From IMG/VR virus record IMGVR_UViG_2703718873_000025: DNA of 18,324 nt; one strand, given 5' to 3'. Shown here one piece after another: positions 15,001 through 18,324 of this stretch. Source of the stretch: a virus (taxonomy: Duplodnaviria > Heunggongvirae > Uroviricota > Caudoviricetes). Positions within the stretch are counted from its first letter, which is position 1; each line of letters starts with the position of its first letter. Position numbers: made by a program.

Positions 15001-18000
15001 GCCTTACGGTTCAGGCAAATACAGAGAGAATTTCGTCTGGCACTGTCTGAAACTGCTCCTGTTTATACGATGACACCGGAAGAAGTGGACCTCACACTGA
15101 ACTGGGGGAGAATCAGCAATGTGCTTCCGGAGTTTCGGGGAGAGGGTGGTGTCAGAGTGGGGCGAATATCCTTTAATAATATATCAGCGATACTGGGCAC
15201 AGTGGCGGTTATACTGAATTGCCATCATCAGGGGGCACGTTCCGTTCGCTCCGTGAATGAAGAGATACAACCAGAATGTCAGATAACTGGCGACAGGCCA
15301 GTTATAAGGCTAAACAATACTTTATGGGAAAGTAATACCGCAGCTGCTTTTCTGAATCGCAGGGCTCACTCTTTAAATACATCCGGAGAATAACGGGAGT
15401 TAAATATGAAGAAGATATTTGTAGCGGCTTTATTTGCTTTTGTTTCTGTTAATGCAATGGCAGCTGATTGTGCAAAAGGTAAAATTGAGTTCTCTAAGTA
15501 TAATGAGAATGATACATTCACAGTAAAAGTGGCCGGGAAAGAGTACTGGACTAACCGCTGGAATCTGCAACCGCTACTGCAAAGCGCACAGTTAACAGGA
15601 ATGACGGTAACAATCAAATCAAATACCTGTGCGTCAGGTTCAGGATTTGCTGAAGTGCAGTTTAATTAATATCAGAAGCATTGCTGGTTTCGTAGTGTGC
15701 AGCAATGTAGTTACAGTGTAATCAATGTCACAATTCAGTCAGTTGACGGTTGCCTGTCTGGCTGAGCATTTGTTAAAAAAATCCTGCATGATGAATCCCC
15801 CTGTGCGGAGGGGCATAATGACAGATGTTTGGTTGCGTATTGTATAGGCAAGTTGCGGATTCTGTCTGGTCATTGCAGAATTCACCGGGAGGCACCCGGC
15901 ATCATGCTGTATACAGAGATTAGGCATATATCCAGGCTCCTCATCGCAGGAGCCTTTTTACATGCAAAAAAAGCCCGCGCCGGGAGACGCGGGCGGCAAG
16001 GAATAAACAACAAAACGTGAAGTAATATTTCAGCTGGCGAATAATACCCGACAGTAATCACTCTGCGCAACTGCGCGGCCTTTTTCGTATTGCGGGCTGT
16101 AGTCTTCCTTCTGTCATTGTCCTTTAACTTCCGGACCTCAGCCCGCTCTTTATCTGATTCAGTACACTATCCCGGCCGGGAGGATTCATGACATTTAAAC
16201 ACTATGACGTGGTCAGGGCGGCGTCGCCGTCAGACCTTGCGGATGCGCTTGCTCAAAAAATTCGTGAAGGATGGCAGCCATACGGCGGGCCGTTTTCTTC
16301 GTATACGGATGATGGCGCAGCACTTATTCAGGCGATTGTCGCAGAAGGTGATGTGAGCACACCTGTGTTGGTGAAGCCGTCGGATGGAGAAGGCACAGTT
16401 ATCAGCACCACCAGCGAACCGGAGTATTACTTTGTTGTGGTTCTGGCGGGGCAGTCAAACAGCATGGCATATGGTGAAGGCCTTCCGCTGCCGGAGACAT
16501 ATGACCGTCCGGACCCGCGTATTAAGCAGCTGGCGCGCCGCAGTACGGTGACACCGGGCGGTGCCGCCTGTAAGTATAACGACATTATTCCGGCGGACCA
16601 TTGTCTGCATGATGTGCAGGACATGAGCCGTCTTAACCATCCGAAAGCGGACCTGTCAAAGGGGCAGTACGGAACCGTGGGGCAGGGGCTGCATATCGCC
16701 AAAAAACTGCTGCCGTTTATACCGGCGAATGCGGGCATTCTGCTGGTTCCGTGCTGCCGTGGTGCTTCGGCATTCACAACGGGTGCAGACGGCACATACA
16801 GCGAATCAGCCGGTGCATCGGAAAATTCACTGCGCTGGGGTGTGGGTAAGCCGCTGTATCAGGATTTGGTGAGCCGGACTAAAGCCGCACTGGCGAAGAA
16901 CCCGAAAAACCGTCTGCTTGCGGTGGTGTGGATGCAGGGAGAAGGTGATGCGGCAGTGGGGACGCATGCGCAGCATCCGGGGCTGTTTAGTGCGATGGTG
17001 AATCAGTTCAGAACGGAGCTTGCCGGTCAGGCATCACAGAGCACAGGAGGCAGCGCATCAGCGGTACCGTGGATTTGCGGGGACACAACGTATTTCTGGA
17101 AGCAGCGTCATGCGGAAGGGTATGCATCAGTATACGGAGGGTATAAGGGTAAGGAGTCGCAGAACATTTTCTTTGTACCGTTAATGACGGATGAGAATGG
17201 TGCGAATGTGCAGACCAATGACCCGGCAGAAGACCCGGACCTGGAAGCCGTCGGTTATTACGGTTCAAAGTGGCGTAATGACCAGAAGACCTGGACATCT
17301 GTGGACAGGGCAAGCCGGGAGAACCGCTGAATTCATTACCGGAAAACAGCCTGATACGGTGAAGCCCACCGGACCTTCCGGTGAAGGCCCGGAGAGAGAG
17401 CCGGAAGCCCCGGTCAGTAACCGAACCCTGATGAGTCTGCTGGCGTCCGGTGAAGACCTGGCATCACAGGGCTGGCGCTATTATCACAAACCGGCGAGCG
17501 GAGACAGTGTTAATAAAAACATCGCTGAGGCTGTGGTCAGTGATGAGGGTGCCACCGGTGGTAAGGCCCTGCAACTGAACAAACCGGAAAGCCACATCTG
17601 GTTTCTGGAGCATGATGCCGCCGGGCAGGGGGCAGAGTTGCTGAAGAAAGGCGGACGTGTGAGCGTACGGTTTAAGGTGCCGGGCTCACTGGTGCCGAAT
17701 CAGTTTGCCCTGGGTATTTACTGGCAGTTGTCGTCCCTGCCGGAGGGAGTGACGCTGTCAGAGGAAGGCAACGACATGCTGATGTCCTTCTTCCTGCAGA
17801 CGGATGCGACGAACCTGAACGCGATGTACCACAAGAAGCAGAATGCGAAGCTGGATACGTTCGGGGTCTTTGATAACGGATGGCACACACTGGCTTTTGA
17901 GTTTGCCGGAAACAACAGCATTCAGGTGACGCCGGTACTGGATGAGAAACGGGGTACGCCGTTCACACTGGTGAAATCTCCGGCATCAGGGGCGGCGGAC

Positions 18001-18324
18001 AAACTGCAACTGACAGACATATCAAAGGCGGCGACATATACGTTGCTGATTGACAGTGTGAAGGTGGAAGTGAACAACGCGGATGCCGCGGCATGATAAA
18101 AAAGGCCGCCAGCAATGAAGGAAAGGGATGAACTTTGTCCACTACATGAATGCTGGCGGCTGGTAAAACGACCATGATGACACCGAAGTCTGCGGTGTTT
18201 TTCTACAAAAATAAGTAAATCATGTCAACTATCACGGTGAGAAACCATGACATTTCTGAACCAGTTAATGCTGTACTTCTGTACGGTGGTCTGTGTGCTG
18301 TATCTTCTTTCGGGTGGGTACAGG

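Follow-up and report, generated by a model that had tools for sequence, protein, structure and literature searches.

The stretch of DNA analysed here, hereafter the window, comprises the 18,324 bp of the IMG/VR virus record IMGVR_UViG_2703718873_000025, and the element in question is the nanS-p gene, coding for a sialate O-acetylesterase, which lies downstream of the Shiga toxin genes stxA2b and stxB2b. The gene is divided over two overlapping open reading frames (ORFs), referred to below as ORF1 and ORF2, which share 140 nucleotides. Both ORFs, the GQSN motif in the first and its stop codon had been noted in a preliminary description of the window, and the ORFs were recovered exactly as described in the ORF listing and in the raw sequence (Table 1).

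Pfam matches to DUF1737 and SASA in ORF1 and to DUF6645 in ORF2 identify both as real coding sequence rather than chance ORFs. The SASA match (PF03629; residues 83-279 of ORF1, E-value 1e-12) scores 48.6 bits, which is above the gathering threshold of 24.8, and spans positions 4-157 of the 226 of the profile, the C-terminal part of the profile being unmatched in the intact protein likewise; neither the intact protein nor the split ones had any NCBIfam match. Residues 1-376 of ORF1 are identical to those of intact NanS-p and are followed by an out-of-frame tail, RENR (17316-17327), and the TGA. ORF2 had been taken to encode a protein-like C-terminal region, which holds for its residues 42-301 (17314-18096); these reproduce intact NanS-p residues 399-658 without a difference and are the only genuine coding part of the ORF, whereas its first 41 residues are an out-of-frame reading of the esterase. 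All three domains of NanS-p are recognisable in the window, but they are spread over two reading frames and not joined in one polypeptide, and the sequence comparisons identify the two ORFs as the halves of a single nanS-p gene.

Table 1. Features of the window, with the parts of the split nanS-p gene listed first (aa, amino acids).
Feature	Position	Strand	Remarks
ORF1, truncated 5' part of nanS-p	16188..17330	+	380 aa, frame 0, TGA stop at 17328-17330
DUF1737 domain, aa 3-53 of ORF1	16194..16346	+	Pfam, E-value 8.7e-12
NanS-like SGNH/SASA esterase domain, aa 77-376, cut right before the catalytic His	16416..17315	+	alignment to NanS (PDB 3PT5), E-value 3.8e-118
Block I GQSN, aa 88-91, nucleophile Ser90	16449-16460	+	
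Deletion junction, 68 bp (GCCATTTCAGTTCATGGGCTCGCCGTGGGATTATTTCCGACCGTCTGGCAACGGCGATTCTGGTGCAC) absent	17313..17317	+	
ORF2	17191-18096	+	301 aa, +1 frame
Spurious head of ORF2, 41 out-of-frame esterase codons open by chance	17191..17313	+	
3' part of nanS-p left stranded in the +1 frame, comprising aa 399-658 of the intact protein (interdomain linker and lectin-like C-terminal domain) and the stop codon	17314..18096	+	
C-terminal jelly-roll, putative carbohydrate-binding domain, intact aa 466-653	17515..18078	+	match to PDB 6YP6, E-value 7.7e-63
DUF6645 core within the C-terminal domain	17641-17982	+	Pfam, E-value 4.5e-46
Integrase	1-1236		
Two tRNA-Arg genes (anticodons TCG and TCT), between Q and stxA	14176-14342		
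stxA2b	14434-15393		
stxB2b	15406-15669		
DUF1378 gene, start	18247		

The expectation that this position is normally occupied by one large esterase gene was borne out by the close relatives. A megablast search of positions 16100-18200 against 5,426 complete Escherichia coli genomes yielded 48 genomes covering at least 80% of the query, and the best matches (99.8-99.9% identity) were always in two pieces, spanning 2169 bases for the 2101 bases of the query. The nearest, in E. coli JNEC-KY202 (NZ_AP045178.1), is a single coding sequence of 1977 bp directly downstream of stxA2b and stxB2b, with a product of 658 residues (WP_062872686.1). Every close relative inspected, including four independent Stx2b prophages from Japan, the USA and Switzerland and one prophage of the same allele group without stx, carries a single ORF of 655-658 residues together with the 68-bp segment that is absent from the window; homologues with a single ORF and the 68 additional bases are 96-99.9% identical, and the chromosomal NanS also contains the segment. 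An arrangement of two separate genes, which the preliminary description had considered as a possible ancestral state, was seen in no homologue examined. These comparisons show the two-ORF arrangement to be derived and unique, and the ancestral state to be a single gene of 1977 bp (DUF1737, NanS-like SGNH esterase, linker and lectin-like C-terminal domain).

In a MAFFT alignment with the intact coding sequence of JNEC-KY202, the gene of the window is distinguished by a single 68-bp gap and a single, synonymous substitution. The lesion lies at 17313-17316, inside the interval of 17280-17340 that had been proposed for resequencing; its breakpoint can be placed anywhere from between 17313 and 17314 to between 17316 and 17317, GCC being present at both ends of the deleted segment (a microhomology of 3 bp). 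The sequence contexts of the two endpoints, GGGCAAGCC and GTGCACGCC, agree in seven of nine bases, as read off the alignment, and no direct repeats were found at the deletion endpoints beyond GCC and this imperfect 9-mer. Since 68 equals 3x22 + 2, the downstream frame is shifted by +1 relative to the upstream one, which accounts for the apparent +1 frameshift described earlier; the net shift stands, but its cause is the 68-bp deletion and not an indel of one base. A single-base frameshift or homopolymer error was accordingly rejected, the alignment showing one clean gap. No hairpin that might have driven the deletion was found, the DNA folding of the intact region giving a z-score of 0.48. A gene-conversion donor, that is, a paralogue without the 68 bp, was also sought and rejected, none being present in the complete E. 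coli genomes, the GTDB representatives, IMG/VR, the JGI metagenomes or INPHARED.

In an ungapped comparison over its full length with the JNEC-KY202 prophage, the window showed, besides the 68-bp gap, three substitutions (at 7868, 14405 and 17958), with no other indel, including single-base homopolymer differences, in the remainder of the 18.3 kb. All three are private to the window, the other base being found in every relative with a matching flank; that at 17958, inside the 3' part of nanS-p, is the synonymous one. These private substitutions indicate that the window is an independent sequence and not a copy of a database genome.

The segment lost corresponds to residues 377-398 of the intact protein, HFSSWARRGIISDRLATAILVH. 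The intact protein aligns over residues 77-396 with E. coli NanS (PDB 3PT5; E-value 3.8e-118) and over residues 466-653 with the crystallised C-terminal domain of a NanS-p (PDB 6YP6; E-value 7.7e-63). In the former alignment the missing peptide pairs with chain residues 312-331 of 3PT5, His377 with chain residue 312 and Ser90 with chain residue 30. The catalytic residues of NanS are given as Ser19 and His301, with no catalytic Asp, in the part of PMC9063846 that cites Rangarajan et al. 2011. With Ser19 placed at chain residue 30, an offset of 11 residues, we infer that Ser90 corresponds to Ser19 of NanS and His377 to its His301. Block I, GQSN with the nucleophile Ser90, is present in the window and aligned with the GQSN motif of NanS. 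Block IV of the SGNH enzymes reads RSSH or RASH in NanS-p, and the lone variant allele, RPTH, still has the His (Pascal et al. 2023, PMC10462455); the window reads DRAS-RENR-stop at this place, His377 and the 21 residues after it being deleted. The deletion thereby takes away the general base, along with the last helix of the esterase fold, and disconnects the linker and the lectin-like domain. The 380-residue product of ORF1 is predicted to be catalytically dead, without activity on Neu5,9Ac2 or pNP-acetate, and is possibly unstable. A restored frame would not bring the enzyme back, as His377 and the C-terminal esterase helix would still be gone. The deletion itself, the loss of His377 and the esterase helix, and the identification of the toxin as Stx2b and of the prophage as long-tailed and lambda-like are points that the preliminary description had not foreseen.

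That the split might be functional, with programmed +1 (or -2) frameshifting joining the two ORFs or with the esterase and the lectin being expressed as separate proteins, is suggested by the length of the ORF overlap and the recognisable domains in both ORFs. Separated domains are also conceivable in view of the phi24B homologue, whose domains are naturally separated by cleavage once the protein has been made (preprint 10.64898/2026.04.10.717836). However, the two-frame arrangement is not conserved, the homologues being single-frame and the junction occurring nowhere else among the collections searched. The region 17150-17330 contains no X XXY YYZ heptamer, and the context of the stop, CGC-UGA-A, is not shift-prone, unlike the frameshift site of prfB, CUU-UGA-C. 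No in-frame start codon of ORF2 has a Shine-Dalgarno-like sequence ahead of it, and within the genuine C-terminal sequence an in-frame ATG first occurs at 17431, about 100 nucleotides past the stop of ORF1. Folding of the equivalent region of an intact relative (L003:17494-17601) does not exceed that of shuffled sequence (the z-score of 0.48 given above), notable repeats are absent, and any fusion product would still be without residues 377-398, that is, without His377 and the last helix. Programmed frameshifting and translational coupling were rejected on these grounds (slippery site, Shine-Dalgarno sequence and conservation all lacking, and the His missing regardless), and a functional split of any kind is considered extremely improbable; frameshifting, regarded from the outset as the less likely explanation, is now effectively excluded.

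We consider the locus to be a genuine null allele (pseudogene) of nanS-p in an Stx2b-converting lambdoid prophage, inactivated by the 68-bp deletion, with a probability of roughly 0.65. The lesion is large and clean and carries a 3-bp microhomology, as is typical of replication slippage or illegitimate recombination, and the deletion may have arisen by either process at the short microhomology between the two similar 9-mers. Translation would begin at the normal start and stop four codons past the deletion, giving a fragment with DUF1737 and the esterase up to residue 376, which retains Ser90 and would be unable to de-O-acetylate Neu5,9Ac2. The C-terminal domain, having no ribosome-binding site of its own, would presumably not be usefully translated.

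Such a loss would be tolerated, as other prophages of E. coli strains of this kind supply several nanS-p paralogues, and the chromosomal nanS is often present too. Among the complete E. coli genomes with any nanS-p, the median number of places per genome is 4, with a maximum of 14, and JNEC-KY202 has 5, which supports redundancy. According to the review PMC8065619, EDL933 has seven (vs. 10) active copies and the O104:H4 strain has five. The gene belongs to the Q-dependent late transcript together with stx, its expression rising on induction (PMC10462455, PMC8065619), and intact NanS-p de-O-acetylates Neu5,9Ac2 and mucin glycans, enabling lysogens to grow on them (PMC8065619). With several active copies per strain, the loss of one should have a small phenotypic effect, and the documented disruption of nanS-p by insertion sequences (IS) in Stx2a phages (PMC10462455), tolerated in O157, fits such a small effect.

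The rarity of the lesion weighs against a genuine null allele. A query of 100 bp centred on the junction was matched in one piece by none of the 5,426 complete E. coli genomes, where the best matches were split over 168 bp, and had no match at all among the INPHARED phages; searches for the exact junction patterns in the GTDB representative genomes, IMG/VR and the JGI metagenomes found nothing; and both truncated proteins were absent from an exact look-up among about 15 billion predicted proteins, a collection in which the exact intact protein was found on 330 contigs. A singleton lesion is equally what an artefact of assembly, cloning or editing would look like. The preliminary description had favoured a pseudogene or a sequencing or assembly indel, and these are the two explanations that survive. 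In the second of them, the deletion arose in assembly, sequencing, cloning or later handling, and the real phage has an intact nanS-p of 658 residues. The absence of the lesion from every collection searched, set against the common intact allele, speaks for an artefact, as do the nature of nanS-p as a multi-copy repeat and the many members of its cluster that are 'partial' at contig ends, which indicate that the gene often troubles assemblers. A microhomology of 3 bp is, however, far too short for a de Bruijn or overlap mis-join, and the flanks on either side match the orthologous allele at 100% identity, with no sign of a chimera with a paralogue. Base-calling errors typically involve 1-2 bp and not 68 bp, and the lack of other indels in the 18.3 kb makes generally poor base-calling unlikely. 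An artefact thus appears possible but somewhat doubtful.

The allele may also be real and enzymatically dead without being functionless, in that the 380-residue product with its DUF1737 might bind the capsid or another partner. Residues 1-376, DUF1737 included, are unchanged in ORF1, and in phi24B the protein (gp84) processes itself into separate domains, its DUF1737 anchoring it on the capsid, where it acts as a decoration protein, and remaining there after the rest has been cleaved off (preprint 10.64898/2026.04.10.717836). However, capsid decoration is known from phi24B and not from the long-tailed lambda-like type, and the nearest intact prophage is long-tailed and lambda-like with a fusion of ClpP protease and major capsid protein, not a phi24B-like T=9 podovirus; moreover, truncation may cause the esterase domain to misfold and lead to its degradation. 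A non-catalytic role is therefore regarded as very unlikely, and it is just as improbable that the deletion allele has been retained for a use without hydrolysis, such as capsid decoration or the binding of O-acetylated sialoglycans; if that were true, it would be a natural separation-of-function variant of NanS-p.

In annotation, one disrupted nanS-p pseudogene should be recorded at the locus instead of an "esterase" gene and a separate gene for a "DUF6645 protein". Where growth on mucin is compared with the number of nanS-p copies, the Stx2b prophage of the window should likewise be left out as a contributor of active sialate O-acetylesterase. A real deletion would add a further case, beside the IS insertions, of dispensable single nanS-p copies in multi-lysogenic Shiga toxin-producing E. 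coli, and the size difference of 68 bp could serve as a strain-specific marker for the polymerase chain reaction. The importance of the lesion beyond annotation is small. A literature search for papers mentioning nanS-p together with 'pseudogene' found none; the NanS-p family is well known, nothing about the lesion is mechanistically new, and only this particular 68-bp deletion is unrecorded.

The window as a whole represents the left arm of the prophage, starting exactly at the start codon of the integrase, and is about 99.98% identical to the prophage adjoining prfC in JNEC-KY202, whose structural module is of the long-tailed lambda-like type, with a tape measure protein, gpJ and the ClpP-protease/capsid fusion. 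Between the integrase and Q it encodes yfdPQR, cI/cro-like regulators, Rha, a methyltransferase, RusA, KilA-N and DUF968. The pair of tRNA-Arg genes is the usual tRNA cluster of Stx phages, to which some relatives (L002) add a tRNA-Ile. The private substitution at 14405, A to G, lies 29 nucleotides upstream of the start of stxA2b, between the tRNA-Arg genes and stxA, where A is found in all five comparable relatives; that at 7868, G to T, changes Ser205 to Ile in the Rha-family regulator (coding sequence 7255-8403), whose allele is common to one relative only. The ORF listing gives stxA a TTG start at 14365 (14365-15393), identical relatives being annotated from the ATG at 14434, and the 23 codons in between are probably untranslated.

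Terminator-like hairpins were predicted between stxB and nanS-p at 15934-15955 and 16063-16078 on the plus strand and at 15994-15973 on the minus strand; the five found in the whole scanned region are not clearly above the shuffled expectation of 2.5 +/- 1.6. If the intergenic hairpins are real, nanS-p expression would depend on antitermination by Q. Two further structures, noticed by eye and unlisted by the terminator scan, are a perfect 10-nucleotide inverted repeat, GCCGCCAGCA and TGCTGGCGGC (18106-18115 and 18151-18160), right after the nanS-p stop, and a short hairpin, ACACCG-N7-CGGTGT, followed by TTTTCT (18180-18204).

Among the relatives, one prophage (L002:1320-2588; NZ_CM143724.1) has an intact nanS-p that is 96.7% identical, its stxAB slot being occupied by a TerB-family gene, a DUF3927 gene and two hypothetical genes, which indicates that the same nanS-p allele group travels with non-toxin cargo too. 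Two related Stx2b prophages show lesions of their own, a frameshifted KilA-N gene in strain 2018-166 (L006:12047-12861) and an IS1A insertion adjoining the integrase in strain 2015C-3121 (L005:1495-2469), which shows that decay is ongoing in this prophage lineage.

Compared with known systems, the locus is closest to the nanS-p genes of other Stx2b prophages, as represented by JNEC-KY202. The two share the order Q, two tRNA-Arg, stxA2b, stxB2b, nanS-p, DUF1378/DUF826 and holin, and the genes are identical except for the one synonymous substitution and the missing 68 bp, which split the gene and deprive it of the catalytic His. The NanS-p proteins of 933W (z1466, 933Wp42) and phi24B (vb_24B_21, gp84), which are characterised O-acetylesterases acting on Neu5,9Ac2 and mucin sialates (PMC8065619), have the same architecture of DUF1737, SASA and lectin-like domains and the same place downstream of stx. 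They are intact and active, whereas the copy in the window is disrupted, and the copies of Stx2a and Stx1a phages belong to a different allele group, with a DNA identity of only about 84-92% over part of the gene; the window allele's C-terminal domain is also clearly diverged from 6YP6. The chromosomal NanS (YjhS; 3PT5) is homologous over the esterase (residues 77-396), with the same GQSN and the same S-H-F-S-S histidine motif, but has neither DUF1737 nor the lectin-like domain; the segment equivalent to the part of NanS from His301 through the C-terminal helix is the one lost from the window. The nearest parallel to the disruption itself is provided by the IS-disrupted nanS-p alleles of O157 Stx2a phages (sequence 16, CTR3; Pascal et al. 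2023, PMC10462455), which are likewise natural disruptions of a gene whose copies are dispensable. In those alleles an insertion of the IS3 family changes the C-terminal end but spares the whole esterase domain, whereas in the window a small deletion destroys the active site. The locus is a disrupted member of the NanS-p family: it has the genomic position of the family (it begins at 16188, after the end of stxB2b at 15669, with DUF1378, DUF826 and holin genes following in colinear relatives), its domain content and its GQSN motif, but lacks the single three-domain polypeptide and the catalytic His.

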